DNA from: Squalus acanthias | Lineage: Eukaryota | Reading direction: 5' to 3' | DNA: 64,000 nucleotides | Assembly: GCA_030390025.1 (NCBI GenBank) | Contig: CM059426.1 | Location: 173,910,001 to 173,974,000, forward strand | In this document: piece by piece, positions 2,935 to 56,274 of the stretch | How the letters are laid out: the number at the start of each line of letters is the position of its first letter | Position numbering within the stretch: position 1 is the stretch's first letter | Notes under the pieces: generated by a model | What the model saw: the letters and a program-made list of their open reading frames with translations, nothing else | Database searches by the model: none | Told to the model about the DNA's origin: nothing | Translations under genes and position numbers: made by a program

Positions 2935-5900
2935 TGCACTCCTAGGGGGAGTGTTTGCTAGTGCTGTTGGGGAGGGTTTAAACTAAAATGGCAGGGGGTT
3001 GGGAACCTGTGCAGGGAGACAGAGGAAAGGGAAGCAAGGATAGAAGCAAAAGACAGGAAGGAGAAAAGCAAAAGTGGCTGTCAGTGAAATCAAGGGTGTA
3101 AATCAAACATGGCCACAGTAAATAATAATTCTAAAAGGTCTAAGAGTGTTAAAAAAACAAGCCTGAAGGCTTTGTGTCTTAATGCGAGGAGCATTCGTAA
3201 TAAGATGGATGAATTAGCTGCGCAAATAGATGTAAACGGATATGATATAATTGGGATTACAGAGACATGGCTCCAGGGTGACCAAGGCTGGGAATTCAAC
3301 ATCCAGGGGTATTCAATATACAGGAAAGACAGGCAAAAAGGAAAAGGAGGTGGGGTAGCATTGCTGGTTAAAGAGGAGATTAACACAATAGTAAGGAAGG
3401 ATATTAGCTCTGATGATGTGGAATCTGTATGGGTAGAGCTGAGAAATACCAAGGGGCAGAAAATGTTAGTGGGAGTTGTATACAGACCCCCAAACAGTAA
3501 TGCTGAGGTTGGGGATGGCATTAAATGGGAAAATTAGAGATGCGTGCAATAAGGGCACAGCAGTTATCATGGGTGACTTTAATCTACATATAGATTGGGC
3601 TAACCAAATTAGTAACAATACTGTGGAGGAGGAATTCCTAGAGTGTATACGGGATGGTTTCCTGGACCAATATGTCGAGGAACCAACTAGAGATCAGGCC
3701 ATCTTAGACTGGGTATTATGTAATGAGAAAGGATTAATTAGCAATTTTGTTGTGCGAGGCCCCTTGGGGAGGAGTGATCATAATATGATAGAATTCTTCA
3801 TTAAGATGGAGAGTGAAATAGTTGACTCAGAGACTAGGGTACTGAATTTAAATAAAGGAAACTACGATGGTATGAGGTGCGAGTTGGCTAGGATGGATTG
3901 GGGAATGTTACTTAAAGGGTTGACGGTGGATAAGCAATGGCAAACATTTAAAGATCGCATGGATGAACTACAGAATTTGTTCATCCCTGTTTGGCATAAA
4001 AATAAAAACAAAAAAGGTGACTCAACCGTGGCTAATGAGGGAAATTAGGGATAGCATAAGATCCAAGGAGAGGACATATAAATTGCCAAGAAAAAGCAGC
4101 AAACCTGAGGATTAGGAGCAGTTTAGGAATCAGCAAAGGAGGACGAAGGGATTAATTAAGAGGGGGAAAATAGAGTATGAGAGTAAGCTTTCAGGGAACA
4201 TAAAAACTGACTGTGAAAGCTTCTATAGATATGTGAAGAGAAAAAGATTGGTGAAGTCAAGCGTAGGTCCCTTGCAGTCAGAATCAGGGAATTTATAATG
4301 GGGAACAAAGAAATGGCTGACCAATTAAATACATACTTTGGTTCTGTCTTCACAAAGGAGGACACAAATAACCTCCCAGAGATGTCGGGGAACATAGGGT
4401 CTAATGAGAGGGAGGAACTGAATGAAATCAGTATTTGTAGGGAAATGGTGTTAGGGAAATTGACGGGATTGAAGGCCGATAAATCCCCAGGGCCTGATCA
4501 TCTACATCCTAGGGTACTTAAGGAAGCTGCCCTAGAAATAGTAGATGCATTGCGGTCATCTTCCAAAATTCTATAGACACTGGAACAGTTCCCATGGATT
4601 GGAGGGTAGCTAATGTAACCACACTATTTAAAAAAGGTGGTAGAGAGAAAATGGGGAATTATATACCGGTAAGCCTGACATCAGTAGTGGGGAAAATGCT
4701 AGAGTCCATTATAAAAGATGTAATAGCAGAGCACTTGGAAAACAGTGACAGAATCGGACAAATTCAACATGGATTTACAAAAGGTAAATCATGCTTGACT
4801 AATCTACTGGAATTTTTTGAGGATGTAACTGGTAGAATGGATAAGGGAGAACCAATGGATGTGGTGTATTTGGACTTTAAGAAGGCTTTCAATAAGGTCC
4901 CGCATAAGAGATTAGCATGCAAAGTTAAAGCACATGGGATTGGGGTAAGGTACTGACTTGGATAGAGAACTGGTTGGCAGACAGGAAGCAAAGAGTTGGA
5001 ATAAACGGGTCTTTTTCCGAGTGGCAGGCAGTGACTAGTGGGGTACCGCAGGGATCGGTGCTAGGACCCCAGCTATTCACAATATATATTAATGATCTAG
5101 ACGAGGGAACTAGATGTAATATCCCCAAGTTTGCAGATGACACAAAGCTGGGTGGGCAAGTGTGCTGTGAGGAGGATGAAACCCCAGTATGATTTGGACA
5201 GGTTGGGTGATTGGGCAGATGCATGGCAGATGCAGTATAATGTGGATAAATGTGAAGTTATCCACTTTGGTGGCAAAAACAGGAAGACAGATTATTATCT
5301 GAACGGCAATAGATTGGGAAAAGGGGAAGTGCAATGAGACCTGGGTGTCCTTGTGCACCAGTCACTGAAGGTAAGCATGCAGGTGCAGCAGACGGTTAAG
5401 AAGGCAAATGGTATGTTGGTCTTCATAGCGAGAGGATTCAAATACAGGAGCAAGGATGTCTTGCTGCAGTTGTACAGGGCCTTGGTGAGACCACACCTTG
5501 AGTATTGTGTGCAGTTTTGGTCGTCTTATCTGAGGAAGGATGCTCTTGCCATGGAGGGAGTGCAGCGAAGATTCACCAGACTGATACCTGGGATGGCAGG
5601 AATGATGTATGAAGAGAGATTGGGTCGATTGGGCTTGTATTCGCTAGAGCTTAGAAGAATGAGAGGGGATCTCATTGAAACTTATAAAATTCTAACAGGA
5701 CTAGACAGACTAGATGCAGGAAGGATGTTCCCGATGGCGGGAGAGTCCAGATCCAGAGGTCACAGTCTAAGGATAAGGGGTAAGCCATTTAGGACTGAGA
5801 TGAGGAGGAATTTCTTCACGCAGAGAGTGGTGAACGTGTGGAATTCTCTACCACAGAAAGCAGTTGAGGCCAATTCATTAAATATATTCAAGAAGGAGAT

Positions 5901-16480: not shown

Positions 16481-17351
16481 GTCGGCAAGATGAGCAAGCT
16501 GTTGAGAAGATTGGGGGATGAGAGTGGGCTTTCTTTTTTTTTCCTGTGTTCAAAGATCACTTACACACATTTTGTGAAGTCACTGTATTGTTTTACACAG
16601 CATTCACAGGAGAATAAGGTGACACATTGAAGTTGTTGGCACAATTAAGAGTAAGCTGGATACACTTTGGGATGTTCAGCAAAATGTGCTGGCATGCCTC
16701 AGGTTCAACTGAGTCAGCCATTCAGGGTCCTGTCTGCACAGCGGAACTCACAGGCCTTGATCACTGCCCAATGAGGAGCTTACACTGCCCAGTCAATGTT
16801 CCTATTGACCCATTCTAAAGACAGCCAGGGTGTATCGATGGAGTTAAAAACAGAAAATGCTGGGAATACTCAGCAAGCCGGCACAGGCTCGATGGGCCGA
16901 ATGACTTCCTTCTGTGCTGTAACCATTCTATGATTCTAAGTCCAGCAGCATCTGTGGAGAAAGTTAACGGCCTCGCTTTAAACCCCTCCTCTGACGTTGG
17001 GCGGGAGGGGGGGCTAAAATATCGGGATCGTGCAACCTGACCCCATTCCCTTTGGTTTAAATTTTTACTGACCCAAATCAGTCCGTCGACAAGGTTCCCG
17101 CAAAAGGCAGACGGGGGCCTAATTAACATTCAAAAGCCGCGGCCCAATGACATCATCGGCGCAGCACCTTAAATTTAACTGCAGGTCGGGGAAGGCCACG
17201 CTGCCGGCCGGCAGACCCAAGAGGGGAGCCGCCAACTGCCCTAAGGTAAGTGCTGAAGATCACCTCCTTTTAGCACCGCTTGTGCACCAGGAGGATCAGG
17301 ACTGCTTTCCCCCCACCGCTCCCCCAGGCCTCAAAAGAAAGCCTTTGGCAT

Positions 17352-20300
17352 CCCAACCCAATCACTGCCCGGACCATCTCCCCCCCCCCCACAACCCAAT
17401 CACTGCCCGGACCATCTCCCCCCCCCCACAACCCAATCACTGCCCGGACCATCTCCCCCCCCCCACAACCCAATCACTGCCCGGACCATCTCCCCCCCCC
17501 CACAACCCAATCACTGCCCGGACCATCTCCCCCCCCCCCACAACCCAATCACTGCCCGGACCATCTCCCCCCCCCCACAACCCAATCACTGCCCGGACCA
17601 TCTCCCCCCCCACCCCCCCAACCCAATCACTGCCCGGACCATCTCCCCTCTCCCCCCCCAACCCAATCACTGCCCGGACCATCTCCCCTCCCCCCCCCCA
17701 ACCCAATCACTGCCCGGACCATCTCCCCTCCCCCCCCAACCCAATCACTGCCCGGACCATCTCCCCTCCCCCCCCCAACCCAATCACTGCCCGGACCATC
17801 TCCCCACCCCCCCCCAACCCAATCACTGCCCGGACCATCTCCCCTCCCCCCCCCAACCCAATCACTGCCCGGACCATCTCCCCTCCCCCCCCAACCCAAT
17901 CACTGCCCGGACCATCTCCCCTCCCCCCCCCAACCCAATCACTGCCCGGACCATCTCCCCTCCCCCCCCCCAACCCAATCACTGCCCGGACCATCTCCCC
18001 TCCCCCCCCCAACCCAATCACTGCCCGGACCATCTCCCCTCCCCCACCCCCCAACCCAATCACTGCCCGGACCATCTCCCCACCCCCACCCCCCAACCCA
18101 ATCACTGCCCGGACCATCTCCCCTCCCCCCCCAACCCAATCACTGCCCGGACCATCTCCCTCTCCCACCCCCAACCCAATCACTGCCCGGACCATCTCCC
18201 CTCCCCCCCCCAACCCAATCACTGCCCGGACCATCTCCCCTCCCCCCCCCCAACCCAATCACTGCCCGGACCATCTCCCCTCCCCCCCCAACCCAATCAC
18301 TGCCCGGACCATCTCCCCTCCCCCCCCCAACCCAATCACTGCCCGGACCATCTCCCCTCCCCCCCCCAACCCAATCACTGCCCGGACCATCTCCCCTCCC
18401 CCCCCCAACCCAATCACTGCCCGGACCATCTCCCCTCCCCCCCCAACCCAATCACTGCCCGGACCATCTCCCCTCCCCCCCCCAACCCAATCACTGCCCG
18501 GACCATCTCCCCTCCCCCCCCCAACCCAATCACTGCCCGGACCATCTCCCCTCCCCCCCCCAACCCAATCACTGCCCGGACCATCTCCCCACCCCCACCC
18601 CCCCAACCCAATCACTGCCCGGACCATCTCCCCACCACCCCCCCCCCCAACCCAATCGCTGCCCGGACCATCTCCCCTCCCCCCCCCAACCCAATCACTG
18701 CCCGGACCATCTCCCCTCCCCCCCCCAACCCAATCACTGCCCGGACCATCTCCCCTCCCCCCACAACCCAATCACTGCCCGGACCATCTCCCCTCCCCCC
18801 CCAACCCAATCACTGCCCAGACCATCTCCCCTCCCCCCCCCAACCCAATCACTGCCCGGACCATCTCCCCTCCCCCCCCAACCCAATCACTGCCCGGACC
18901 ATCTCCCCTCCCCCCCCCAACCCAATCACTGCCCGGACCATCTCCCCTCCCCCCCCAACCCAATCACTGCCCGGACCATCTCCCCTCCACCCCCCAACCC
19001 AATCACTGCCCGGACCATCTCCCCTCCCCCCCCCCAACCCAATCACTGCCCGGTCCATCTCCCCCCCCCCCCGCAACCCAATCACTGCCCGGACCATCTC
19101 CCCACCCCCCACCCCCCCAACCCAATCACTGCCCGGACCATCTCCCCACCCCCCCCAACCCAATCACTGCCCGGACCATCTCCCCACCCCCCACCCCCCC
19201 AACCCAATCACTGCCCGGACCATCTCCCCACCCCCCACCCCCCCAACCCAATCACTGCCCGGACCATCTCCCCTCCCCCCCCCCAACCCAATCACTGCCC
19301 GGTCCATCTCCCCCCCCCCCCCGCAACCCAATCACTGCCCGGACCATCTCCCCTCCCCCCCCGCAACCCAATCACTGCCCGGACCATCTCCCCTCCCCCC
19401 CCCCAACCCAATCACTGCCCGGTCCATCTCCCCCCCCCCCCGCAACCCAATCACTGCCCGGACCATCTCCCCTCCCCCCCCGCAACCCAATCACTGCCCG
19501 GACCATCTCCCCTCGCCCCCCCAACCCAATCACTGCCCGGACCATCTCCCCTCGCCCCCCCCAACCCAATCACTGCCCGGACCATCTCCCCTCCCCCCCC
19601 AACCCAATCACTGCCCGGACCATCTCCCCTCCCCCCCCCCCAACCCAATCACTGCCCGGACCATCTCCCCTCCCCCCCCAACCCAATCACTGCCCGGTCC
19701 ATCTCCCCCCCCCCCCCGCAACCCAATCACTGCCCGGACCATCTCCCCTCCCCCCCCGCAACCCAATCACTGCCCGGACCATCTCCCCTCGCCCCCCCAA
19801 CCCAATCACTGCCCGGACCATCTCCCCTCGCCCCCCCAACCCAATCACTGCCCGGACCATCTCCCCTCCCCCCCCAACCCAATCACTGCCCGGACCATCT
19901 CCCCTCCCCCCCCCCCCAACCCAATCACTGCCCGGACCATCTCCCCTCCCCCCCCAACCCAATCACTGCCCGGACCATCTCCCCTCCCCCCCCCCCAACC
20001 CAATCACTGCCCGGACCATCTCCCCTCCCCCCCCCAACCCAATCACTGCCCGGACCATCTCCCCTCCCCCCCCCCAACCCAATCACTGCCCGGACCATCT
20101 CCCCTCCCCCCCCCAACCCAATCACTGCCCGGACCATCTCCCCTCCCCCCCCCCAACCCAATCACTGCCCGGACCATCTCCCCTTCCCCCCCCAACCCAA
20201 TCACTGCCCGGACCATCTCCCCTCCCCCCCCAACCCAATCACTGCCCGGACCATCTCCCCTCCCCCCCCAACCCAATCACTGCCCGGACCATCTCCCCTC

Positions 20301-22372
20301 CCCCCCCCCAACCCAATCACTGCCCGGACCATCTCCCCACCACCCCCCCCCCCCCCCCCAACCCAATCACTGCCCGGACCATCTCCCCACCACCCCCCCC
20401 CCCCCCCAACCCAATCACTGCCCGGACCATCTCCCCTCCCCCCCCCAACCCAATCACTGCCCGGACCATCTCCCCTCCCCCCACAACCCAATCACTGCCC
20501 GGACCATCTCCCCTCCCCCCCCCCAACCCAATCACTGCCCGGACCATCTCCCCTAACCCCCCCCCCCCACCCAATCACTGCCCGGACCATCTCCCCCCCC
20601 CCCGCAACCCAATCACTGCCCGGACCATCTCCCCTCCCCCCCCCAACCCAATCACTGCCCGGACCATCTCCCCTCCCCCCCCCAACCCAATCACTGCCCG
20701 GACCATCTCCCCACCCCCCCCCCCCAACCCAATCACTGCCCGGACCATCTCCCCTCCCCCCCCGAACCCAATCACTGCCCGGACCATCTCCCCTCCCCCC
20801 CCAACCCAATCACTGCCCGGACCATCTCCCCTCCCCCCCCCAACCCAATCACTGCCCGGACCATCTCCCCTCCCCCCACCCCAACCCAATCACTGCCCGG
20901 ACCATCTCCCCTCCCCCCCCCCAACCCAATCACTGCCCGGACCATCTCCCCTCCCCCCCCCAACCCAATCACTGCCCGGACCATCTCCCCTCCCCCCCCC
21001 AACCCAATCACTGCCCGGACCATCTCCCCTCCCCCCCCCCCAACCCAATCACTGCCCGGACCATCTCCCCTCCCCCCCCCCAACCCAATCACTGCCCGGA
21101 CCCTCACCCCTCCCCCCCCCAACCCAATCACTGCCCGGACCATCTCCCCTCCCCCCCCCAACCCAATCACTGCCCGGACCATCTCCCCTCCCCCCCCCAA
21201 CCCAATCACTGCCCGGACCATCTCCCCTCCCCCCCCCAACCCAATCACTGCCCGGACCATCTCCCCTCCCCCCCCCCCAACCCAATCACTGCCCGGACCA
21301 TCTCCCCTCCCCCCCCCAACCCAATCACTGCCCGGACCATCTCCCCTCCCCCCCCCAACCCAATCACTGCCCGGACCATCTCCCCTCCCCCCCCAACCCA
21401 ATCACTACCCGGACCATCTCCCCTCTCCCACCCCCCCACCCCGATCACTGCCCGGAGCATCTCCCCTCCCCCCCCCCCACCCCGATCACTGCCTTTGGAT
21501 CTCCCCTGCCCCCCCACCCCAATCACTGCCCGGACCATCTCCCCTCCCCCCCCCCCACCCCGATCACTGCCTTTGGATCTCCCCTGCCCCCCCACCCCGA
21601 TCACTGCCCGGACCATCTCCCCTTCCCCCCCCCCCCCCACCCCGATCACTGCCCAGAGCATCTCCCCTCCCCCACCAACCCCGCTCAATTCCCGGGGCAA
21701 CTGCCCCCTTCCCCCCCTCCAACCACGATCACTGCCCGGACCATCTCCCCTTCCCCCCCATCCCACCCCGATTACTGCCCGGACCATCTCCCCTCCCCCC
21801 CCCCCTCCCAGTCCGATCACTGCACGGACCATCTCCCCTCCCCCCCCCCCCCCACCCAGATCACTGCCTGCAGCATCTCTCCCCCCCCACCCCGATCACT
21901 GCCCGGAGCATCTGCCCCCCTCCCCCCCGATCACTGTCCGGAGCATCTGCCCCCCTCCCCCCCGATCACTGCACGGACCATCTCCCCTCCCCCCCCCCCC
22001 CCCCCCCCACCCCGATCACTGCCCGGAGCATCTGCCCCCCACCCCCCCAATCACTGTCCGCAGCATCTGCCCCCCTCCCCCCCGATCACTGCCTGGACCA
22101 TCTCCCCTCCCCCCCCGACCCCGATCACTGCCTTTGGATCTCCCCTCCCCCCCCCACCTCGATCACTGCTCGGAGCATCTCCCCTCCCCCCCCCCCCCAC
22201 CCCGATCACTGCCTGGAACATTGCCCCCCTCCCCCGGTCACTGCCCGGGGCATCTGCCCCCCTCCCCCAGCCCCCATTACTGCCCGGAGTTACTACCTCC
22301 CCCCGGCCCCCCAGCAATCACTGCCCAGAGCTTTTGCCTCCCCCCAGCCCTACAGCTCCAATCACTGCTGAG
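17352..22372. repeat. About 5-kb C-rich minisatellite, unit about 39 bp AACCCAATCACTGCCCGGACCATCTCCCCT(C)n
   Basis: Roughly 100 near-identical units to about 21420, differing mainly in C-run length, then diverged units. Confidence 0.97.
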
Positions 22373-22374
22373 GC

Positions 22375-25300
22375 CTAACCAATAATTTATAAAGTTCCAG
22401 CATGATCTCTTTGTTTTTATATTCTATTCCTCTATTTATAAACTGAGTAACCCATATGCTTTTTTAGCCACCTTATCAACTTGGCTTGCCACCTTTAAAG
22501 ATTTGCGTATATGGACGCCAAGGTCTCTCTGCTGATCTAGACTTTTCAAAACCATGCCATTTATAGTATACTGTCCTTTCCATTTTAGTCCTCCCGAAAT
22601 GCATCACTTCCATATTGAAGTTCATTTGCCATGCTTCTGCCCATTTCACCATCCTGTCTGTGTCATCATGAAACTTGTAACTATCCTCATCACTATCTAT
22701 TACTTTGCCAAGTTTGGTATCATCTGCAAACTTTAAAATGCTGCTCCCTACACCCGAGACTAGGTCATTTATAAAAATTGAAAAGAGTAATGGACCCAAA
22801 ACTGACCCTTGGAGACCACCACTGCAAACCACCTCCCAGTCTGAAAAACATCCATCACCACCACCCTCTGCTTCCTGTCACTGAGCCAATTCCGTATCCA
22901 TACTGCCACTTTCCCCTTAATTCCATGGGCTTCCATCTTCTTAATAAGCCTCCTGTGTGGCACTTTGTCGAATGCCTTCCGAAATCCATATATGTATAGA
23001 GTCATAGAGTTATACAGCACAGAAAGAGGCCCTTTGGCCCATCGTGTCCACGCCGGCCATCAAGCCCTGTCTATTCTAATCCCATTTTCCAGCACTTGGT
23101 CCGTAGCCTTGTATGCTATGGCGTTTCAAGTGCTCATCTAAATGCTTCTTGAATGTTGTGAGGGTTTCTGCCTCTACCACCCTTTCAGGCAGTGAGTTCC
23201 AGATTCCAACCACCCTTTGGGTGAAAAAGTTTTTCCTTAAATCCCCTCTAAACCTCCTGCCCCTTACCTTGAAACTATGGCCCCTGGTTATTGACCCCTC
23301 TAGTAAGGGGAAAAGTTCCTTTCTATCTGCCCTATCTATGCCCCTCATAATTTTGTACACCTCAATCAGGTCCCCCCTCAGCCTTCTCTGCTCTAAGGAA
23401 AACAACCCCAGCCTGTCCAGTCTCTCTTCATAGCTGAAGCGCTGCAGCCCAGGTAACATCCTGGTGAATCTCCTCTGCACCCTCTCCAATGCAATCACAT
23501 CCCTCCTATAGTGTGGCGACCAGAACTGCACACAGTATTCCAGCTGTGGCCTAACTAGCGTTTTGTACAACTCCATCATAACCTCCCTGCTCTTATATTC
23601 TATGCCTCGGCTAATGAAGGCAAGTATCCCATATGCCTTTTTAACCACCTTATCTACCTGTCCTGCTGCCTTCAGGGATCTATGTACATGCACACCAAGG
23701 TCCCTCGGATCCTCTGTCCTTCCTAGGGTCCTACCATTCATTGTGTATTCCCTTGCCTTGTTAGTCCTCCCAAAATGCATCACCTCACACTTTTCAGGGT
23801 TAAATTCCATTTGCCACTATTCTGCCCATCTGACCAACCCGTCTATATCATCCTGTAGCCTGAGGCTTCCCTCCGCGCTATTTACCACCCCACCAATTTT
23901 CGTGTCATCTGCGAACTTACTGATCATACCTCCTACATTCATATCTAAATCATTAATGTACACTACAAACAGCAAAGGACCCAGCACCGATCCCTGTGGT
24001 ACACCACTGGACACAGGCTTCCAGTCACAAAAACAACCTTCGACCATTACCCTCTGCCTCCTGCCACTAAGCCAATTTTGGATCCAATGTGCCAAGTTGC
24101 CCTGGATCCCATGGGCTCTTACCTTCTTGACCAGTCTCCCATGCGGGACTTTGTCAAAAGCCTTACTGAAGTCCATGTGGACCACATCAATTGCACTACC
24201 CTCATCCACACACCTAGTCACCCCCTCGAAAAATTCAATCTATTATACTACCTTGCTCAACCTTCTATGTTACCTCAAGTTAGTCAGACACGATTTGCCT
24301 TTAAGAAATCCATGCTGGCTCTCCTTGATTAACCCATTCCTTTCCAAATTAAAGTTTATTTTGTCCTTGGTAATGGTTTCCAATAACTTCCCCACCACCG
24401 AAGTTAGGCTGACTGGCCTGTAGTTTCCAAGTTTATCCCTCTCCCCTTTCTTGAATAGTGGTATAACATTAGCAACCCTCCAGTCCTCCAGTATGACTCC
24501 TGCATCCAATGAGGATTACATAAGAGCATAAGAATTAGGAGCAGGTGTAGGCCATACGGCCCCTCGAGCCTGCTCCGCCATTCAGTAAGATCATGGCTGA
24601 TCTTTGACCTCAACTCCACTTTCCAACCCGATCCCCATATCCCTTGATTCCCCTAGAGTCCAAAAATCTATCTCTCTCAGCCTTGAATATACTCAACAAC
24701 TCAGCTTCTACAACCCTTTGGGGTAAAGAATTCCAAAAATTCACAACACTCTGAGTGAAGAAATTCCTCCTCATCTCAGTCTTAAATGGCCTACCCCTTA
24801 TCCTGAGACTATGCCCCCTAGTTCTAGACTCTCCAGCCAGGGGAATCAACCTCTCAGCGTCTACCCTGTCAATCCCCCTCAGAATTTTATATGGTTCAAT
24901 GAGATCACCTCTCATTCTTCTAAACGCCAGAGAGTATAGGCCCAATCTACTCAATCTCTCCTCACAGGACAACCCTCTCATCCCAGGAATCAATCTAGTG
25001 AACCTTTGTTGCACCGCCTCCAAGGCAAGTATGTCCTTCCTCAGATAAGGAGACCAAAACTGTGCACAGTACTCCAGGTGTGGTCTCACCAAAATTGAAA
25101 GATTGTGACCAATGTCCCTGCTATTTCTACCTTTGCTTCTTTTAGCAACCCAGGATGCATTTCAACAGGACCAGGTGACTTACCAACTTTGAGTAATGCT
25201 AATTTTTTTAGTACGTCTTTTCTATCTATTACTATCCTGTCCATAACTTCCCTCTCCTCTTTTAGTGTAATCTTCACAACATCTGCTTCCTTTGTGAAGA

Positions 25301-40620: not shown

Positions 40621-41867
40621 TCATTCATTGAGTTCAATAGTTGAAATAAACACTCAAAAAGAGTAACCTGACGAAGAGGACCAGCTCATTGTCGAACCTT
40701 TTGTTCTATTGAACTCAATGAACAAAAATCAGGCAGGTTCCACAACGGGCAGGCCGCCCATTCTGTGAAGTTAAAAATTGCCCCCAATCACTTTTACTGC
40801 TATCCTTGTGAGAAAATGGTTCAACTGTAGTTACTCGGAGAACAGAAACATTGGTGTTCTAGAAGGGGAAGTTCAAATGGGCCGAGGGCCGTCTTTATAC
40901 AAACCTACCTTGTGAACAAATGTTGTAATTTACTGTATATTTTATTCATTTCAAGATGTCCTAATAATAGTACACGTATCACCTGGCGTTAATGGCCTCA
41001 AAAAGGGGTTAACCCTTTTAATATGCAAATTGGAGTCCTATTTACATTGCAAGATCCCCATTGAAATTTTAGGTTAGAACTGGTTGGAGCCTGCGCCGTG
41101 CGGGCTCGCTCGGTTCCATGGAGCAGACGAGGCCCAGCAAAGGCATGTTTGGAATTATTTTGTAGGGTGCGGAGCCCTCCAAAAGTAATCTGAGCCTCTG
41201 CAATCCAAAACCCACACCCCGAATTTACCTTGCTGCTGGCTGGGGGTGGCCCGATAGTGCTAGGCCTCAATCTGATGAGCTCGACCGAGAGTTGCCAACA
41301 CTGATTGGAGGAACTGCCGGAGGATTGATCACCTGACATCTGGCCACGTGCTATCTGACTACGTGACGTCTATAAGTGTTATGACATTCACCCATTAACA
41401 ATCGAGGCCCCTGTAGGTGAGTTTTGGTGCCTGTAGCCGTTCTGCAAGAAGCACCAAGAACACGTGATCAAGCAATGGAAACTGAAGGTGGGGAAGAGAT
41501 TCACGGGGGAAACCAGAGGTGGAAAACTCTGATTACGCCAGTAACTAATGGTAATACTGGTAACACTCAAATTCCCCTCATAACCAATAGTAATACTATA
41601 ACCCACTGCTAATCTGTATTTAAACTGGTGCAATGCCCCGATATCCTATCTGTGATTAGTAGTAATCATGTAGCCTGCTGATATTCACCCTGAAAATTCA
41701 ACTAGAATCCCCTTGCTCTGCACAAGGTGCGGTCAGGCTTCCCACAGTCAATGCCACTTTTAACAGGCCCCATCTCATTGGACTCTGGTTTGGAATCAGG
41801 TCCTGTGTACTCTTCTGGATGCACCCTAACCCAAATAAACTGTAACTAATTCAACATTAAATGAAAC

Positions 41868-44242
41868 TCTCTCCCAACCCAGTCCCCGTCTCTCCCACCC
41901 CATTCCCCGGTCCCCGTCTCCCCGTCTCTCCCACCCCATTCCCCGGTCCCCGTCTATCCGTCTCCCCCTCCCCATTCCCCGGTCCCCGTCTCTCCGTCTC
42001 TCCCTCCCCATTCCCCGGTCCCCGTCTCCCCGTCTCTCCCACCCCATTCCCCGGTCCCCGTCTCCCCGTCTCTCCCACCCCATTCCCCGGTCCCCGTCTC
42101 CCCGTCTCTCCCACCCCATTCCCCGGTCCCCGTCTCTCCGTCTCTCCCTCCCCATTCCCCGGTCCCCGTCTCTCCCACCCCATTCCCTGTCTCTCCGTCT
42201 CTCCCACCCCATTCCCCGGTCCCCGTCTCTCCGTCTCTCCCTCCCCATTCCCCGGTCCCCGTCTCTCCCACCCCATTCCCCGTCTCCCCGTCTCTCCCAC
42301 CCCATTCCCCGGTCCCCGTCTCTCCGTCTCTCCCTCCCCATTCCCCGGTCCCCGTCTCTCCCACCCCATTCCCCGTCTCCCCGTCTCTCCCACCCCATTC
42401 CCCGTCTCTCCATCTCTCCCTCCCCATTCCCCGGTCCCCGTCTCTCCCACCCCATTCCCCGTCTCTCCGTCTCTCCCTCCCCATTCCCCGGTCCCCGTCT
42501 CTCCCACCCCATTCCCCGTCTCCCCGTCTCTCCCTCCCCATTCCCCGGTCCCCGTCTCTCCGTCTCTCCCTCCCCATTCCCCGGTCCCCGTCTCTCCCTC
42601 CCCATTCCCCGGTCCCCGTCTCTCCCTCCCCATTCCCCGGTCCCCGTCTCTCCCTCCCCATTCCCCGGTCCCCGTCTCTCCCTCCCCATTCCCCGGTCCC
42701 CGTCTCTCCCTCCCCATTCCCCGTCTCTCCCTCCCCATTCCCCGGTCCCCGTCTCTCCCTCCCCATTCCCCGTCTCTCCCTCCCCATTCCCCGGTCCCCC
42801 CCCCCACCAACCACCAACCACCACCCCCCCCCCCCCATCCCCATTCCCCCCACCCCCCCCCCCCATTCCCCACCCCCCCCCCCATTCCCCACCCCCCCCC
42901 CCATTCCCCGGTCCCCGTCCCCCCCATTCCCCGGTCCCCGTCCCCGTCCCCGTCCCCGTCTCTCCCCCCCACCCCATTCCCGGTCCCCGTCCCCGTCTCT
43001 CCCCCCCACCCCATTCCCCGGTCCCCGTCCCCGTCCCCGTCCCCGTCCCCGTCTCTCCCACTCCATTCCCCGTCTCTCCCACCCCATGCCCCGGTCCCCG
43101 TCTCTCCCACCCCCCCCCATTCCCCGGTCCCCGTCCCGTCCCCGTCCCCGTCTCTCCCACTCCATTCCCCGTCTCTCCCACCCCATTTCCCGGTCCCCGT
43201 CTCTCCCACCCCATTCCCCGGTCCCCGTCTCTCCCTCCCCATTCTCGGTCCCCGTCTCTCCCTCCCTCCCCATTCTCCGGTCCCCGTCTCTCTCTCCCTC
43301 CCTCCCCATTCTCCGGTCCCCATCTCTCCCTCCCTCCCCATTCTCCGGTCCCCGTCTCTCCCTCCCTCCCCATTCTCCGGTCCCCGTCTCTCCCTCCCCA
43401 TTCTCCGGTCCCCGTCTCTCCCCCCCTCCCCATTCTCCAGTCCCCGTCTCTCCCTCCCTCCCCATTCCCCGGTCCCCGTCTCTCCCTCCCTCCCCATTCC
43501 CCGGTCCCCGTCTCTCCCACCCCATTCCCCGGTCCTCGTCTCTCCCACCCCATTCCCCGGTCCCCGTCTCTCCCTCCCCATTCTCCAGTCGCCGTCTCTC
43601 CCTCCCCATTCCCCGGTCCCCGTCTCTCCCTCCCTCCCCATTCTCCGGTCCCCGTCTCTCCCTCCCTCCCCATTCTCCAGTCCCCGTCTCTCCCTCCCTC
43701 CCCATTCTCCGGTCCCCGTCTCTCCCTCCCTGTCTCTCCCTCCCTCCCCATTCTCCGGTCCCCGTCTCTCCCTCCCTCCCCATTTCTCCGGTCCCCGTCT
43801 CTCCCTCCCTCCCCATTCTCCGGTCCCCGTCTCTCCCTCCCTCCCCATTCTCCGGTCCCCGTCTCTCCCTCCCTCCCCATTCTCCGGTCCCCGTCTCTCC
43901 CTCCCTCCCCATTCTCCGGTCCCCGTCTCTCCCTCCCTCCCCATTCTCCGGTCCCCGTCTCTCCCACCCCCATTCCCCGGTCCCCGTCTCTCCCTCCCTC
44001 CCCATTCTCCGGTCCCCGTCTCTCCCACCCCATTCCCCGGTCCCCGTCTCTCCCACCCCATTCCCCGGTCCCCGTCTCTCCCTCCCCATTCTCCAGTCGC
44101 CGTCTCTCCCTCCCCGTTCTCCAGTCCCCGTCTCTCCCACCCCATTCCCCAGTCCCCGTCTCTCCCACCCCATTCCCCAGTCCCCGTCTCTCCCACCCCA
44201 TGCTCCAGTCTCCGTCTCTCCCACCCCATCCCCCAGTCTCCG
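41868..44242. repeat. C-rich minisatellite, 28-bp core CCCCATTCCCCGGTCCCCGTCTCTCCC(T/A) with 32- and 36-bp variants
   Basis: Directly visible tandem units arranged in variant blocks. Confidence 0.96.
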
Positions 44243-44945
44243 TTGTAAAGGAATGAGCCAAACCTATACAGAAAAATACACCATCCTATGAACAGAAATC
44301 AGACTTTATTAAAATATAACAAACTGGGTTTAAAAATCTAAAAGCCTCAATGACACAAAGCTGTAAATACAGGCTTCTGAGATAAGATGAGTCACAAAGC
44401 TGTAAACACCATACAAGCTTTTGAAATGGGAAATGGTTATTGACACTGAGACAATGGCCTCATTGAAACAGAGGGTTGTAGGTTCCAAGGAGTCTGCAGT
44501 TTGGAACCGACACAATAGCTATACCCAGTTTAAAGTGTTAAAAAGTAACACTTTGAACAGAAACACAGAACATTAAAAAACCATGGGGGAGAAATTCAGT
44601 ATCGCCCCGTTTGGGGCGCAATTATCGGCCGGGCGCAAAGATTAGCGCCTGGCGCTAATTATCGCCTCCGACTGCAAACTTGACTTTTATCGCCCCTGGA
44701 GGTGATTGGAGCGCTAAATCAGGCGCTACACACCTGTCTTAAGGTGCAAAGGCCGAGGAGCGAGGCGCTAACTCAGAGCGCGGGCGCAGCGCAGGTGCTG
44801 TCAGTTAGCGATGGAACACAGACACACTGGCGCCAGACAGTTCTTAAAGGGGAGGGTCGATCTTGCACTCCAGCCACACCCTGCTCATTGGAGCCTTGAA
44901 TCTCGGCCTGGAGAGACCTGTGCCTAAATCTTCCAGCCAAGGACT

Positions 44946-49633: not shown

Positions 49634-49799
49634 TCTTCAAGTCATTCCTTTCCTTTAGGGAGAGATAGTCTGACCTTTAGACCCAATTAAGCATCTCTAG
49701 GATTCAGCTATCTCTAACTTTAGTTGAAGGTGAACATCTGGGGAATACGTCTGATCTGGGGTAGCCCGAAGAGAGCTAGGACTAGTAATTATACCTTCA

Positions 49800-50410
49800 C
49801 CGTCTCGCCCACCCCATGCCCCAGCCTCCGCCGCCCCCTGCCCCAGCCTCCGCCGCCTCACCCGCCCCCTTCTCCAGCCCCCGCCTCGGGCTCCGCCTCC
49901 CCCGGTCTCCGCCTCCCCCGCCCCCCAGGCTCCGGTCTCCGCCTCCCCCGCAGCTCCGGTCTCCACCTCTCCCGCCCCCCATGTTCCGGTCTCCGTCCCT
50001 CCCACCCCATGCTCCAGTCCCTCCCACCCCATGCTCCAGTCTCTCCCACCCCATGCTCCAGTCTCCGTCTCTCCCTCCACCCATGCTCCAGTCTCCGTCT
50101 CCCTCCCCATGCTCCAGTCTCCGTCTCTCCCTCCCCATGCTCCAGTCTCCGTCTCTCCACCCCATGCTCCAGTCTCTCCCACCCCATGCTCTCTCTCCCA
50201 CCCCATGCTCCAGTCTCCGTCTCTCCCTCCCCATGCTCCAGTCTCCGTCTCTCCCTCCCCATGCTCCAGTCTCCGTCTCTCCCTCCCCATGCTCCAGTCT
50301 CCGTCTCTCCCTCCCCATGCTCCAGTCTCCGTCTCTCCCTCCCCATGCTCCAGTCTCCGTCTCTCCCTCCCCATGCTCCAGTCTCCGTCTCTCCCTCCCC
50401 ATTCTCCAAC
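49800..50410. repeat. C-rich minisatellite, 28-bp unit CCCCATGCTCCAGTCTCCGTCTCTCCCT
   Basis: Tandem units; C-rich low-complexity sequence continues to about 50840. Confidence 0.93.
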
Positions 50411-50837
50411 CCCAAGCTCTGACCCCCAGTCTTGATTCTTCTTCTCTTCCCACTGCCTGAGCTCCATTCGCCATGACCTTCGGTCTCCATTTCTCACCCG
50501 ATCCCCTATCGCTGGCCTCCATTCCCATTCTCCCTCTATCCCACAATCTCCCTCTGCCTAAGCCCCCATCCGCAAAACCAATTCCCATCTCCCTGTCCCC
50601 CCACTCCCCATTTCCCAGTCCCCCTCTCATTCCCATCCCCAAAACCTATTCTCCTCTCCCTTTTCACAGTCACCATCTAATCTTCAATCCCCAACCCCCA
50701 TTCCATCTCTCCGCATCCCCTGACTGACTCCCATTCCCCAATCTCCTTCTCTTTGCCCTCCAACTCCCGAGCCTCCCCGGACTCCCCAACCCCCACTCCC
50801 GACGCCCCCCGACCCCGACTCCCGGGTACCCCCCGAC

Positions 50838-50982: not shown

Positions 50983-51421
50983 GATTTGTCAGCAAAGTTG
51001 CAGATGCAAGTTTAAAGGGATCTACAAACAACTCCAACTAACCAGATAGATGCCTTTTGAGAAACTGGGCATCAGGTGAACAGATACGGCCGTACAGCTG
51101 AAGCTGCCGTGTCCAACTAAACAAGGCAGATTTACTGCCAATGCCAAGCCCAAAACCACATACTATAACCATGGTGGTGAAAACCCACTCACCAAAGGTG
51201 TAGTCACATGGACTTACTGAAAAGGCAACAATTTTTCAAGAGTCTGCAAATCCGAAGGAATTCAACCAAAGAAACACACAAGACAAAGAAAAGCATGCAT
51301 AGCCCGGCACCGTGTAACATGTCCAGCCTGATGAAAATGAAATAAGATGGTTTTCCAATTTAACCTTCTTTTAAAAAGACAAGCATTTCGTATAAGAGTA
51401 TAAACATTTGAAAGTAGACAG

Positions 51422-54400
51422 TGTCGTAAGAATGAGCCTTACGCGTGGTGAACTTAAAGTAAGCTTTAATCAACTAAAAAGGTGCTACATACAAAAGAGG
51501 TCTTACTCTATGCCTCTCCAGGATCCAACTGATCAGTCCAGTATTTATCCTGGACTAATCACAGGAAGTGATGCAATAAAGTTCGAGTCACAGGAAGCTG
51601 TATTGTGTTACCACATTCTCCCCCCCCAAAAGATTAGGAGGCCGGGATGAAGTTCGAGTCACAGGAAGCTGTATTGTGTTACCACATTCTCCCTCCATTT
51701 CGTAGCCGCTGGACGAGGGAGAGTCGCACCCGTTTGGGTTCTCGTAGCGGTAGAGGGCCCCTAGCCCGTTTATCCGCTGCGGGCCATGGACCAGAGTCCG
51801 AGTGATCCAGCCCGCTCTGTGAGGGGTCAGGACGATCCTGACTGTGTACTGGTGCCCGAACGGGTGTCGGGCAGGGCTGTGGCAGATCCGTTTCCAAGCG
51901 TATGGTACGGGGTGGATCGTGGCTGCGCGTGCGAGCCCCGACGGGCTCATAGTCAGTCTGCCCCAGGTCGGCACGCTGGAGTGAGGTACCAGCCGGTGTC
52001 AGATCCAGATCGTGATGAGAGGCACCTGGCGAGCCCAGAGATGTGCCTGGTACAATATCATCCCCTGGTGTCCCTCTATGTTTCGGCGGGCAGGGAGCCA
52101 GATCCCGCAATGACACGGTAGATTCCCGACCGTCAGGATACCGAATATAGGCGTAGGTAGGGTTGACGTCAGTGAGCTCAACTCATCTACCAGGGGGTCA
52201 TTCTTAGACGCACGGACATATCTTCGGAGTAGCACTGGTCCCGGTGCAGTCAGCCACGACGGGAGAGATATCCCATAGGATGAGCGACGCTGAAATCGGA
52301 AGAACCGTTCATGAGGCGTCGTATTTGTGGTGGTCGAAAGGAGGGACCGTGTGGAGTGTAATGCATCTGGAAGTACTGCTTCCCATTGCTGGTTGGGTAG
52401 GCCCCGAGATCTCAAAGCCAGACGTACCGCATTCCAGATGATAGCGTTAAAACGCTCGACTTGCCCATTCCCGACCGGATGATAAGGCGTTGTTTTGCTG
52501 GCAGCAATACCCCGTTCCGAGAGATAGGCCTTGAGTTCTCCTGACATAAAAGAAGGGCCCCGATCCGAATGAACATAGGATGCCATGCCACAGAAAGCAA
52601 ATACCTGCTCAAGGCAGCTGATAACCGTGGTCGTCAGCATATTGGGGCAGGGAAAGGCAAAGGGAAAACGGGAATACTCATCGACCATGGTCAATAGATA
52701 AGTGTTGCGAGTTGAAGAGGGCAACGGCCCCTTAAAATCGATGCTAAGCCGTTGCATTGGCTGGGTCGCATGTATGAGTATACCACCCGAGGGGCGGAAA
52801 AACCGAGGTTTCAATTCCGCACAGACTCTGCAGTCCGAGCACATCTTCTTTACATCCCCGGTAGATAATGGGAGATTTCGGGACCGCACGAAGTGTAGCA
52901 TGCGAGTAACGCCCGGATGACACAACCCATCATGGATGTCTACGAGCATAGAGGGTGCCATGGCGGAGCAGAATGCTCGTTTAAGGGTATCCGGAGCCAC
53001 ATTCTCCTTGCCAGGTCGATAGTGGATGGTGTAACCAAAAGAGGCCAATTCCAGCCACCAAAGCTGGATTTTATTATTTTTAATTTTGGTCCGTTTTCGA
53101 TTATCGAGCATGAAGGCGACCGATCGCTGGTCCGTGATTAAGGTAAAGTGCTGGCAAGTTAGGAGATGACTCCACTTCCGTACTGCCTCTATGATGGCTG
53201 TAGCTTCTTTCTCGACTGGAGGATAATGTAGCTCAGCCCCTTGAAAAGTCCTGGACAAAAATGCCACCGGACGACCTTCCTGATTCAGAGTGGCCGAGAT
53301 CGCCACCTCCGAGGCATCACACTCAACGACAAAAGGAAGACTCTCATCGATGGAGTGAAGAGTCGCTTTCTCCAACTGTTTTTTCAGGAGGTTAAAGGCT
53401 GCAACAGCCGCTGTGTCTAGTGGGAATGTGCTGGCCTTCAGTAGAGTTTGGATTCGGTCCGAGAAGTTAGGAATCCATTTAGCATAGTATGCAAACAGGC
53501 CGAGGGCCCGGCACAAGGAGGCCAGATTCTTAGGTGGCGGGAGTTCTTGGAGTGGGCGAAGCCTTTCAGGGTCAGGTTTAATGATGCCATTGCCCACACA
53601 ATAGCCAAGGATGTTGATGGTTGGTTGTGACTCAATGGATTTAGCCGCATTTAATGTCAAATTACGGTGCTGGAGTGCATCCCAAAATCGTTGGAGATTG
53701 GCGTCATGTTCCCGCTGATTGCGACCTGCGACAGTAATATTGTCCAGATAAGGAAACGTATCCTTCAAGTCTTCCTGTTTCACCAGGTCATCCATTGCTC
53801 GCTGGAAGACAGCCACTCCATTAGTGACCCCAAAGGGGAGGCGACGAAATTGATACAGCCGTCCATTGGCTTCAAAGGCCGTATACTGCTTGTCTGAGAC
53901 CTTCAAGGATACCTGATGATAGGCACTTTTTAGATCATATGTTGAGAACACCGTGTACTCAGCCAATTTATTAACCATATCATCGATGCGTGGCAATGGG
54001 TATGCATCCAAGTCCGTATATTGATTGATGGTCTGTGAATAGTCAATGCACAGCCGTTTCTTGTGAGGTTGTAGAGGGTTCTTAACAATAACGACCTGGG
54101 CGCGCCATGGCGACGAACAAGGCTCGATGATATCCTCTGCTAAAAGCCAAGAAATCTCAGCCGCAATAAAAGACTGGTCTTCCTGACTGAAACGTCGTGA
54201 CTTTGTTATAATCGGTTTGCATCGAGGAGGGATACTGGAAAACAGTGAGGGTTCATCCAGTGAAGCTGCTGACAATGCACAGAACGGTAATCGAGGTAGT
54301 ATATTAGAAATAGTGAGTTCAGGTTTGGATCCGCCGAACTCAATGGTGAGCTTCTTATGCTGCTTTTGAAAATCCAGCCCTAAGATAAGATCACTACATA

Positions 54401-55888
54401 AGTCCTTGAGCACCGAAAGCCGGGTGGAGGGATACCTGCGACCATTAAGTGTTATTTCAACCATACAAAAGCCAGAAATTCTGGTATTAAGTGATGACTG
54501 AGCCATCGCAACTGCCTGGTCCGATGGGAAAACATGTAGCTTTAACTCCGCAACAATCTGTTCCCTAATGAAACTATCAGTGCTACCTGAGTCAATTAAG
54601 GCATCTAAAGTATGTCCATTAATTGATGCTTTTGTAGCTGCATGGAATAGGTTCTGAGGACAAGCAGCTGTAATTGGTGTCGTTGCACAAAGAGTGGCTG
54701 AAACTCTAGGTGTGTTTCTTCGAGAGGAAGCACGATAGATTTTAGCCGGAACATCTTGATAGGCCCTTACCGGGACAGTTCGGTAGGACTTAGCTTGATA
54801 AGCCCTCGTAGAGGCTCTTGATAGGCAAACCTTTGCAAAATGACCCTTTTTGTTGCAATGACTGCAAAACGCATTGCGAGCAGGGCAGAATTTCCGAGGG
54901 TGGAACTCATCACCACAAAAGAAGCATTTCTTAGATTGCCAAGAGGCTGCCACAGTGGGGTCATCATCCTCTTCATCAGTGAAGTCATCAGATTGATCGT
55001 CAGGGATAAAGACCTCCCTAATAGAGTTCACCTGTGGCCTCTTAAATTGCCTGACTGTAGTTAAGGCAGTAGACTGAGGTCTGGGCACTGTATAAAGGTC
55101 TGCATTCCTTTTTGCCAGATCTAGAGAGCAAGCCAGGTCATAAGCTTTCTGAAGCTCAAGTGTCTTACTTTCCAGTAGACGCTGGCGTATAAATGGGGAG
55201 GCAAGCCCGCAGATGAAATCATCACGGATCATTTCTTCACGGTACAGCTCAGCTGAGGCCGCCCGAAAGTTACAGTCCATACTAAGTCTGCGAAGCTCTT
55301 GGAGGAATTTATCAATGGATTCCTCCGGCCCTTGTTGGGCTGTAGCAAGTAGATGTCTGGCATAGACCTCATTCGGTGTCTTAGTATATAGTCTCTTAAG
55401 CGTCCGAATTGCCTCCTCGTAACTGTCCCATTTCTCCACATACTGAAATACATTCGGGGTGACACAGTTGATGAGTATCCGCAACTTTGAGTTATCATCA
55501 GCCTTACAATATTCAAGAAAATTGTCAAACGTGCGATACCAGTGTTTCCACACCTTACTGGCTGCTGGGGTGTTTGGGTCCAAGTCAAGACGCGATGGTT
55601 TAAGGATGTTTTCCATGATGGGTGATTCCCTGGATCCTTAGTTCCGAGTTCGTCCAAAAAGTTTGAGTGCGAAGTTTTCCAAAGTTGATTAAATTGTCGT
55701 AAGAATGAGCCTTACGCGTGGTGAACTTAAAGTAAGCTTTAATCAACTAAAAAGGTGCTACATACAAAAGAGGTCTTACTCTATGCCTCTCCAGGATCCA
55801 ACTGATCAGTCCAGTATTTATCCTGGACTAATCACAGGAAGTGATGCAATAAAGTTCGAGTCACAGGAAGCTGTATTGTGTTACCACA
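51422..55888 (-). mobile_element. Full-length Gypsy/Ty3 LTR retrotransposon (4467 bp)
   Basis: Identical 194-bp TG..CA LTRs (51422-51615, 55695-55888); 5-bp TSD GACAG; PPT GGGGGGGGAGAA next to the 3' LTR. Confidence 0.97.
51999..55616 (-). CDS. Gag-Pol polyprotein (Gag with two CCHC knuckles, protease, RT, RNase H, integrase); 1205 aa
   Basis: CFFC..H..C and CSHCNKKGHFAKVC, LIDSGS, YLDN, ECDASE, H..H..C..C, IDFKGP/SDRG/VERFN in Gypsy order. A probable 1-nt deletion at about 52181 shifts the C-terminus. Confidence 0.95.
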   Translation of the reverse strand: MENILKPSRLDLDPNTPAASKVWKHWYRTFDNFLEYCKADDNSKLRILINCVTPNVFQYVEKWDSYEEAIRTLKRLYTKTPNEVYARHLLATAQQGPEESIDKFLQELRRLSMDCNFRAASAELYREEMIRDDFICGLASPFIRQRLLESKTLELQKAYDLACSLDLAKRNADLYTVPRPQSTALTTVRQFKRPQVNSIREVFIPDDQSDDFTDEEDDDPTVAASWQSKKCFFCGDEFHPRKFCPARNAFCSHCNKKGHFAKVCLSRASTRAYQAKSYRTVPVRAYQDVPAKIYRASSRRNTPRVSATLCATTPITAACPQNLFHAATKASINGHTLDALIDSGSTDSFIREQIVAELKLHVFPSDQAVAMAQSSLNTRISGFCMVEITLNGRRYPSTRLSVLKDLCSDLILGLDFQKQHKKLTIEFGGSKPELTISNILPRLPFCALSAASLDEPSLFSSIPPRCKPIITKSRRFSQEDQSFIAAEISWLLAEDIIEPCSSPWRAQVVIVKNPLQPHKKRLCIDYSQTINQYTDLDAYPLPRIDDMVNKLAEYTVFSTYDLKSAYHQVSLKVSDKQYTAFEANGRLYQFRRLPFGVTNGVAVFQRAMDDLVKQEDLKDTFPYLDNITVAGRNQREHDANLQRFWDALQHRNLTLNAAKSIESQPTINILGYCVGNGIIKPDPERLRPLQELPPPKNLASLCRALGLFAYYAKWIPNFSDRIQTLLKASTFPLDTAAVAAFNLLKKQLEKATLHSIDESLPFVVECDASEVAISATLNQEGRPVAFLSRTFQGAELHYPPVEKEATAIIEAVRKWSHLLTCQHFTLITDQRSVAFMLDNRKRTKIKNNKIQLWWLELASFGYTIHYRPGKENVAPDTLKRAFCSAMAPSMLVDIHDGLCHPGVTRMLHFVRSRNLPLSTGDVKKMCSDCRVCAELKPRFFRPSGGILIHATQPMQRLSIDFKGPLPSSTRNTYLLTMVDEYSRFPFAFPCPNMLTTTVISCLEQVFAFCGMASYVHSDRGPSFMSGELKAYLSERGIAASKTTPYHPVGNGQVERFNAIIWNAVRLALRSRGLPNQQWEAVLPDALHSTRSLLSTTTNTTPHERFFRFQRRSSYGISLPSWLTAPGPVLLRRYVRASKNDPLVDELSSLTSTLPTPIFGILTVGNLPCHCGIWLPARRNIEGHQGMILYQAHLWARQVPLITIWI

Positions 55889-56274
55889 GACAGCATTTTC
55901 AGCCAGTTTTTGTTTCCACTTGTCTGGTCTTCTAAAAATTACCTGAAATATTTTCTCAGGAATTGAGCACCACTCTTTAAAAAGTCCTAATTTTCTAGTT
56001 TAAGAATGTGTCAGAGTTTCGTGTGATCTTCACCTGACCAAGTAAAAATAAAAATATCATTCAAATTATTGGTGTTTCTGTGTCAAGAGATCAAATATTC
56101 ATTAGTACTGATGCAGGAACATTAGTCAACCAAAAATAGAAAGGTTGAATGCTCAAAATATCAAAGACGTAAAAAGAAAAGGCCATTAGATCCAGCTAGG
56201 GTTACCACCTGGCCATTTTTCACCAACTCATCCAGCCATGTTTTTGAGATAATCTCTGATGCCCCGATCTCACT

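Follow-up and report, generated by a model that had tools for sequence, protein, structure and literature searches.

To our knowledge, self-priming of reverse transcription has been proven only in the fission-yeast element Tf1, and it is tied to the kin of that element. Like the element described here, Tf1 and Tf2 of Schizosaccharomyces pombe and Tj1 of S. japonicus are described as members of the Gypsy superfamily that have no TGG and whose LTR carries a segment complementary to the site after the 5' LTR (PMC7175516, PMC4600332, PMC5341516), and the complementarity reported for Tf1 spans 11 nt, the same length as in our element (PMC7175516). The trait is also described outside Tf1/sushi, in TAR, and for both Tcn1 (Gypsy) and TAR/Houba/Osr-1 (Copia) self-priming was, as in our case, deduced from sequence alone (PMC6317226). 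Here, we present an animal Gypsy element that very probably primes itself in some form, and that probably does so with an arm of its own 5' LTR, cut between positions 55738 and 55737.

The window analyzed is a stretch of 64,000 nucleotides from Squalus acanthias (contig CM059426.1), and all positions below are counted from its first letter. The element has all the hallmarks of the Gypsy superfamily (Table 1): LTRs bounded by TG and CA, a target site duplication, a polypurine tract, and the domain order Gag, protease, RT, RNase H and integrase. Its best solved structural relative is the RT of Ty3. The initial annotation had described a CCHC Gag and no visible chromodomain; we found two CCHC knuckles, and a domain scan detected no chromodomain. 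The gag-pol frame of the window copy is broken near the C-terminus of the integrase, while many sister copies are open and reach near 1,319 aa. The family is young and abundant: across LTR and site, each of the 40 matches scored in this 3.7-Gb genome shows 100% identity, and identity is 96-100% in the 150 Gag matches scored. A duplicate of the polypurine tract and of the first 40 nt of the LTR lies 71 nt before the real 3' LTR; it is present in both sister copies read (L304, L305) and was not seen in four copies from the other two families of this genome. Elsewhere, the window contains C-rich tandem repeats with units of 28-36 nt, which produce long stop-free frames (17123-22385, 41826-44298 and 49697-50645).

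Table 1. Features of the Gypsy element and their positions in the window
Feature	Position	Strand	Remarks
Gypsy element, whole	51422-55888	minus	4,467 bp; young
Left copy of target site duplication CTGTC	55889..55893	minus	
5' LTR, TG...CA, 194 nt	55695..55888	minus	
TATA-like GATAAATA	55815..55822	minus	74 nt upstream of arm
LTR arm AGTTGATTAAA, predicted self-primer	55738..55748	minus	holds ATTAAA 55743-55738
Predicted cut	between 55738 and 55737		placed from Tf1 and defective insertions
Predicted short hairpin, starting at first base after arm	55725..55737	minus	
Predicted U5 hairpin CGTAAG/CTTACG	55698..55716	minus	family-specific
Predicted primer-binding site TTTAATCAACT	55683..55693	minus	one base after LTR; no TGG
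Single gag-pol frame, 1205 aa	51999..55616	minus	Gag, protease, RT (YLDN), RNase H, integrase
Internal duplicate: polypurine tract and first 40 nt of LTR	51647..51696	minus	
Polypurine tract	51616..51627	minus	
3' LTR, 194 nt	51422..51615	minus	100% identical to 5' LTR
Right copy of target site duplication CTGTC	51417..51421	minus	

The 5' LTR ends in ...CGACA at 55695, and after a single A at 55694 comes TTTAATCAACT (55693-55683), an 11-mer that contains no TGG tRNA-type site and whose exact reverse complement, AGTTGATTAAA (55748-55738), lies inside the LTR of the same element. These initial observations are all correct, as are the starts of the TTAGTT and ATTAAA motifs at 55750 and 55743 and the claim of a primer-compatible polarity. 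Counted from the LTR end, the register does not shift by a single base. A stem of CGTAAG (55716) and CTTACG (55703), also part of the original description, is present at those positions, but it does not extend to a clade-wide consensus helix. By chance, dinucleotide shuffling of the LTR gave an anchored complement of at least 11 nt in 4 of 20,000 trials. Folding of the 66-nt segment yields -15.3 kcal/mol and a z-score of -3.6, which fades to 0.1 when 141 nt are considered, and the probability of the arm/site helix is 0.91-0.93 under every assumed 5' end.

We propose that the 5' end of the RNA would fold onto the site and that the RNase H of the RT would cut after ...TTAAA, by analogy with Tf1. 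From the freed 3'-OH, minus-strand DNA would be extended through U5 as far as the cut and would then jump to the approximately 20 nt of R that remain beyond the cut position at the 3' end. Copying of the primer in plus-strand synthesis would rewrite the site from the arm in every cycle, which would explain why changes in arm and site are matched. A short helix at the 3' border of the arm, predicted by folding, may position the cut.

We looked for this pairing in relatives of the element. A protein search returned 196 matches; the 120 listed are 44-66% identical and include named homologs from Trichuris, Actinostola, Armadillidium, Paragonimus and Biomphalaria, and further cluster members come from Porites and Pocillopora. 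Homologs from named hosts are known from proteins alone, and pairing was read in metagenome loci and in the S. acanthias genome. The metagenome scan yielded 80 loci, 25 of them with a Gag start, including two that lack upstream DNA; scans of viral contigs for relatives found 0, 1 and 1. Twenty of the remaining 23 metagenome loci were tabled together with the window element and three copies from its own genome, omitting three same-family copies (L033, L036 and L101), and as one locus (L084) has no junction, 23 elements were scored.

The initial annotation had named covariation of the two 11-mers across relatives as a check, and the relatives bear it out. Arm and site pair at 11 of 11 positions in 16 of the 23 elements, at 10 in four, at 9 in two, and at 6-7 in L107, that is, at no fewer than 10 positions in 20/23 and no fewer than 9 in 22/23; L068, L091 and L107 keep a better arm in the 3' LTR. 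At positions 4-11, 174 of 184 cells are paired against a permuted mean of 124 and a maximum of 148 in 100,000 permutations, and in a 16-row alignment drawn from rows that pair better than the rest, pairing is seen in 99.4% of cells, a level reached by 0 of 500 shuffles, while slid registers give 17-50%; because the rows of both sets are related, these shuffle counts are not probabilities. Seven of the 11 pairs in the alignment have changed on both sides, and RNAalifold recovered the same arm/site helix unaided. Matched changes in arm and site separate even close kin (L034 vs L039, L037 vs L038), and the families that keep the pairing are only 44-68% alike in protein. The 3' border of the arm is almost always TAAA followed by GC or AC, and the far end varies, so that the duplex measures 10-18 bp depending on the family. 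A helix beginning right after the arm is predicted in 14/23 tabled elements (energy minimum only, no control), often as GCCT/AGGC or ACCT/AGGT. We also found 58 eukaryotic-type Gypsy RT loci (L324-L381) inside prokaryote genome assemblies, presumably as contamination. Fifteen of the contaminant elements have a candidate pair of LTRs; among these, those of TGG type show self-complements of 3-7 nt, and L353, which has a Tf2-type SH3 domain, is alone in showing one of 12 nt; L324, which belongs to the self-pairing clade, has a partial arm only.

It had also been suggested that one 11-mer serves as start site, primer and poly(A) signal. This reading is supported in part. Covariation upholds the role as a primer; A[AT]TAAA ends only 14 of the 23 arms, and the pairing extends over 10-18 bp. 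In two families without this motif at the arm end, another signal lies just downstream. The overlap of arm and AATAAA is seen in L353 too, and is therefore not special to the self-pairing clade; a by-product such as masking of ATTAAA by the 5' duplex is plausible for part of the families only. These poly(A) data would suit a duplex of purely structural purpose, which hides the signal of the 5' LTR or aids packaging while another primer is used. We consider this unlikely, since pairing is kept in families without the poly(A) signal, the register is exact to the LTR end, the polarity is right for a primer and no other primer site is present.

Within the S. acanthias genome, one variant of the site points the same way as the comparison among relatives. 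Two more families of this genome, with Gag 62-67% identical, carry the same 11-mer on both arms. The normal site occurs at 3,151 exact junctions and a variant, TTTAATCGACT, at 39. We read 29 copies with the variant site: 17 have the exactly matching arm AGTCGATTAAA, eight the normal arm and four another one, and 10 of the 12 without exact compensation are explicable by CpG decay. Conversely, AGTCGATTAAA was found in 0 of 71 normal-site copies. In L301 and L307 the matched change is present in both LTRs, and the compensated change has therefore been inherited. Scattered site variants are uncompensated in 29 of 30 cases and behave like decay after insertion. L303 was considered as a further case of inherited compensation and rejected, because its change is found in the 5' LTR and the site and is absent from its 3' LTR. 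That pattern would be expected if matched changes arose by genomic template switching between inverted repeats, with no function attached. L303 is, however, one of 30 scattered variants, and the compensation inherited in both LTRs of L301, L307 and L034, together with pairing that persists across such diverged families, makes template switching extremely improbable as the source. A second LTR variant, compared over window positions 55693-55846, has 12 changed letters and one insertion with the 11-mer unchanged (contigs of four sequencing runs).

Priming by the 3' end of a tRNA is ruled out by the sequence because such a primer needs TGG, which is absent here. As recommended in the initial annotation, host tRNAs were compared with the site, and this search, which covered wobble-pattern tRNAs in D-stem context only, found one rival: a tRNA-Ile(AAT) 5' fragment that stops in the D arm (AGTTGGTTAGA, variants AGTTGGTTAAA) and could pair through G-U wobbles. 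The D arm does occur in host tRNA-Ile genes. Of the loci with the pattern, the first 12 contained no gene according to ARAGORN, and nine of 20 picked by hand contained 10. The predicted duplex reaches -9.2 kcal/mol as compared with -9.8 kcal/mol for the element's own arm, and 10 of 23 sites fit with wobbles only. Nonetheless, the fragment meets an outright mismatch in the other 13 sites and pairs at 11 of 11 positions in none. Moreover, copying it would write C at site position 6, where 0 of 3,154 junctions have C and 3,151 have T, and it leaves unexplained why the LTR arm tracks the site. We therefore regard a tRNA-Ile primer as very improbable. The arm plus GC (55748-55736) shares 11 of 13 letters with the D arm of one tRNA-Ile(AAT) locus (L238), both differences being A for G, a likeness that could be due to chance or be the trace of a captured tRNA fragment.

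Defective insertions provide information on where the RNA may be cut. Four contigs each hold an insertion in which both LTRs have shrunk to 60 nt through a join at AGCTT 17-21/151-155; target duplications are present and the internal joins differ among them. As both LTRs are short, the deletion dates to reverse transcription, and the join fits the end of strong-stop DNA predicted if the RNA is cut after the arm, in a Tf1-like cleavage. Four of six shortened-LTR events of 29-150 nt use this join, among seven microhomologies of at least 5 nt (p about 0.005, noticed post hoc). One solo LTR has its join inside the arm, and the shortened-LTR signature, when sought in a second family, gave 0 matches. 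Taken together, covariation across the clade, the compensated subfamily in the same genome, the failure of the tRNA fragment and the insertions joined at the predicted cut support the tRNA-independent self-priming suggested at the outset.

A different set of insertions appears to preserve intermediates. At five separate junctions, the site is followed directly by the inverted LTR arm and U3. Of the window-family junctions followed by a non-T base (n=5), three pass into inverted LTR sequence from upstream of the arm and reach positions 96, 35 and 1; the inverted copy in L382 stops at LTR position 96, near TATA+30 (one event). A second family has three such inverted junctions (two of them duplicates), which continue into the inverted 3' end; in L398-L400 the site runs into the inverted 3' U3, the polypurine tract and the internal region. 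One element (L386) has copied its own 7-T run and must therefore have folded back on itself. These inverted junctions show that polymerase extends the end of the site on the arm as template, an outcome expected whatever the primer because arm and site are complementary. L386 (G000:C20:53244682-53247710) is an inserted fold-back product made up of LTR, site and inverted U3, with U3 at both ends and a 4-of-5 target duplication. Two further loci, L413 and L414 (G000:C1:562000-576000), consist of head-to-tail copies that share single LTRs, possibly as an artefact of assembly; tandem Tf1/Tf2 arrays are described with a similar arrangement (PMC11042837).

The position of the transcription start bears on the identity of the primer. 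A TATA-like box lies at -74 in the window element and at -92 in a sister family (L299, L301), and none of the tabled elements has one at -25 to -35 from the arm. The box at -74 predicts a start near 55792, about 45 nt upstream of the arm, and the resulting primer of 55 nt would have a tail left unpaired at the second transfer. We lean towards a start no more than a few bases away from 55748; a start near 55792 is possible but rather doubtful. Since alternative starts are described as being in use in Tf2 (PMC5341516), both may exist in the window element. A start near 55792, in keeping with the TATA-like box, would suit a primer derived from the arm copy in the 3' LTR, with the RNA cut or ending after that arm at its 3' end and looping to the site. 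The arm is present in both LTRs, and covariation does not distinguish between the two copies; the L398-L400 junctions, which reach the 3' U3 and beyond, are likewise in line with a 3' primer. Against this source stand the four two-LTR deletions at 151-155, which imply strong-stop DNA ending at the boundary of the 5' arm, and the unpaired tail that so long a primer would be expected to leave. Also, an ATTAAA poly(A) signal normally directs cutting downstream of itself. A 3' arm primer thus seems improbable, and priming by the 5' LTR arm remains our preferred reading.

In a 41-row phylogenetic tree that included no chromovirus, a 100/100 branch with a length of 1.14 separates the self-pairing elements and their named homologs from Mag-like and retroviral rows. 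A second tree of 43 rows contained nine from the self-pairing clade, and its chromoviruses were contaminant elements from GTDB, not Tf1/sushi themselves; the starred chromovirus groups of this tree (98/89, 99/89) do not include the clade, and the backbone lacks resolution. When the clade was forced together with a seven-row chromovirus core, the AU test did not reject sisterhood (p=0.209). No chromodomain or Tf2-type SH3 domain follows the integrase in P0001 and seven scanned homologs or in the precomputed domains of 120 homologs, and the same domain library did detect these domains in other elements. A search for a chromovirus in the S. acanthias genome found 0 of 16 Chromo hits beside an integrase; the SH3_Tf2-1 hits fetched from it are retrovirus-like where the RT motif is readable. 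The ESM Atlas returned only generic RT clusters. The RT motif is YxDN in 81 and YxDD in 24 of the 105 homologs that could be parsed, with 16 of 121 not parsed. YxDN also occurs in recently mobile elements (YLDN in P0001), and our literature search found no report of a YLDN motif.

Based on these findings, we tentatively suggest, as an idea with somewhat less than an even chance of being right, that a large unrecorded Gypsy clade, with members in cnidarians, flatworms, nematodes, molluscs, arthropods and vertebrates, evolved Tf1-style self-priming on its own, separately from chromoviruses, with a single 10-18 bp duplex that acts as primer, is cut between TAAA and GC and often hides the 5' poly(A) signal, and with an RT that is mostly YxDN. 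Within the literature searched, no paper turned up that describes self-priming for an animal Gypsy clade outside the chromoviruses. Some invertebrate Gypsy families in Repbase are reportedly called self-primed, and prior cataloguing is therefore a real risk. If our proposal is correct, self-priming would be a common animal strategy, with over 3,000 junctions in one genome, and it would inform the question, raised in PMC3601003, of whether hairpin priming is an ancestral trait or has evolved several times. Self-primed elements might escape silencing by tRNA 3' fragments, and LTR finders that rely on tRNAs would score them as lacking a primer-binding site. The defective insertions offer a cut prediction exact to the base, and YxDN in recently mobile elements poses a separate question of enzymology.

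Among described animal lineages, the one we take to include our Mag-like elements, Mag (A, B and C clades, SURL), likewise comprises short animal elements with a single gag-pol frame and paired CCHC knuckles. The Mag-like elements differ in having TGGCGACGAG sites, an RT about 32% identical and a separate starred clade. One young Mag-like family of the S. acanthias genome (L288, L289) has a TGGCGACGAGG site and a 1,335-aa frame. The Cigr-1 and MolGy clades, compared by description only, are likewise non-chromoviral animal Gypsy elements (PMC6238403, PMC8556966); Biomphalaria, for which a Cigr-1 family of high copy number is listed, also harbors a homolog of our element (P0093), and the main text of the two sources makes no mention of a primer-binding site. 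The other lineages with self-priming deduced from sequence are described from plants and fungi, Tcn1 as a chromovirus and TAR as Copia, whereas the clade of the window element is animal Gypsy. In comparison with Tf1/sushi, the animal clade lacks a chromodomain or Tf2-type SH3 domain, has two CCHC knuckles and an RT that is mostly YxDN, falls outside the chromovirus core in the tree, pairs over 10-18 bp and is hosted by animals of several phyla. Judging from its sequences, the clade would thus work like Tf1 but is a member of neither Tf1/sushi nor Mag, and it likely shares the known self-priming design of Tf1/sushi, Tcn1 and TAR.
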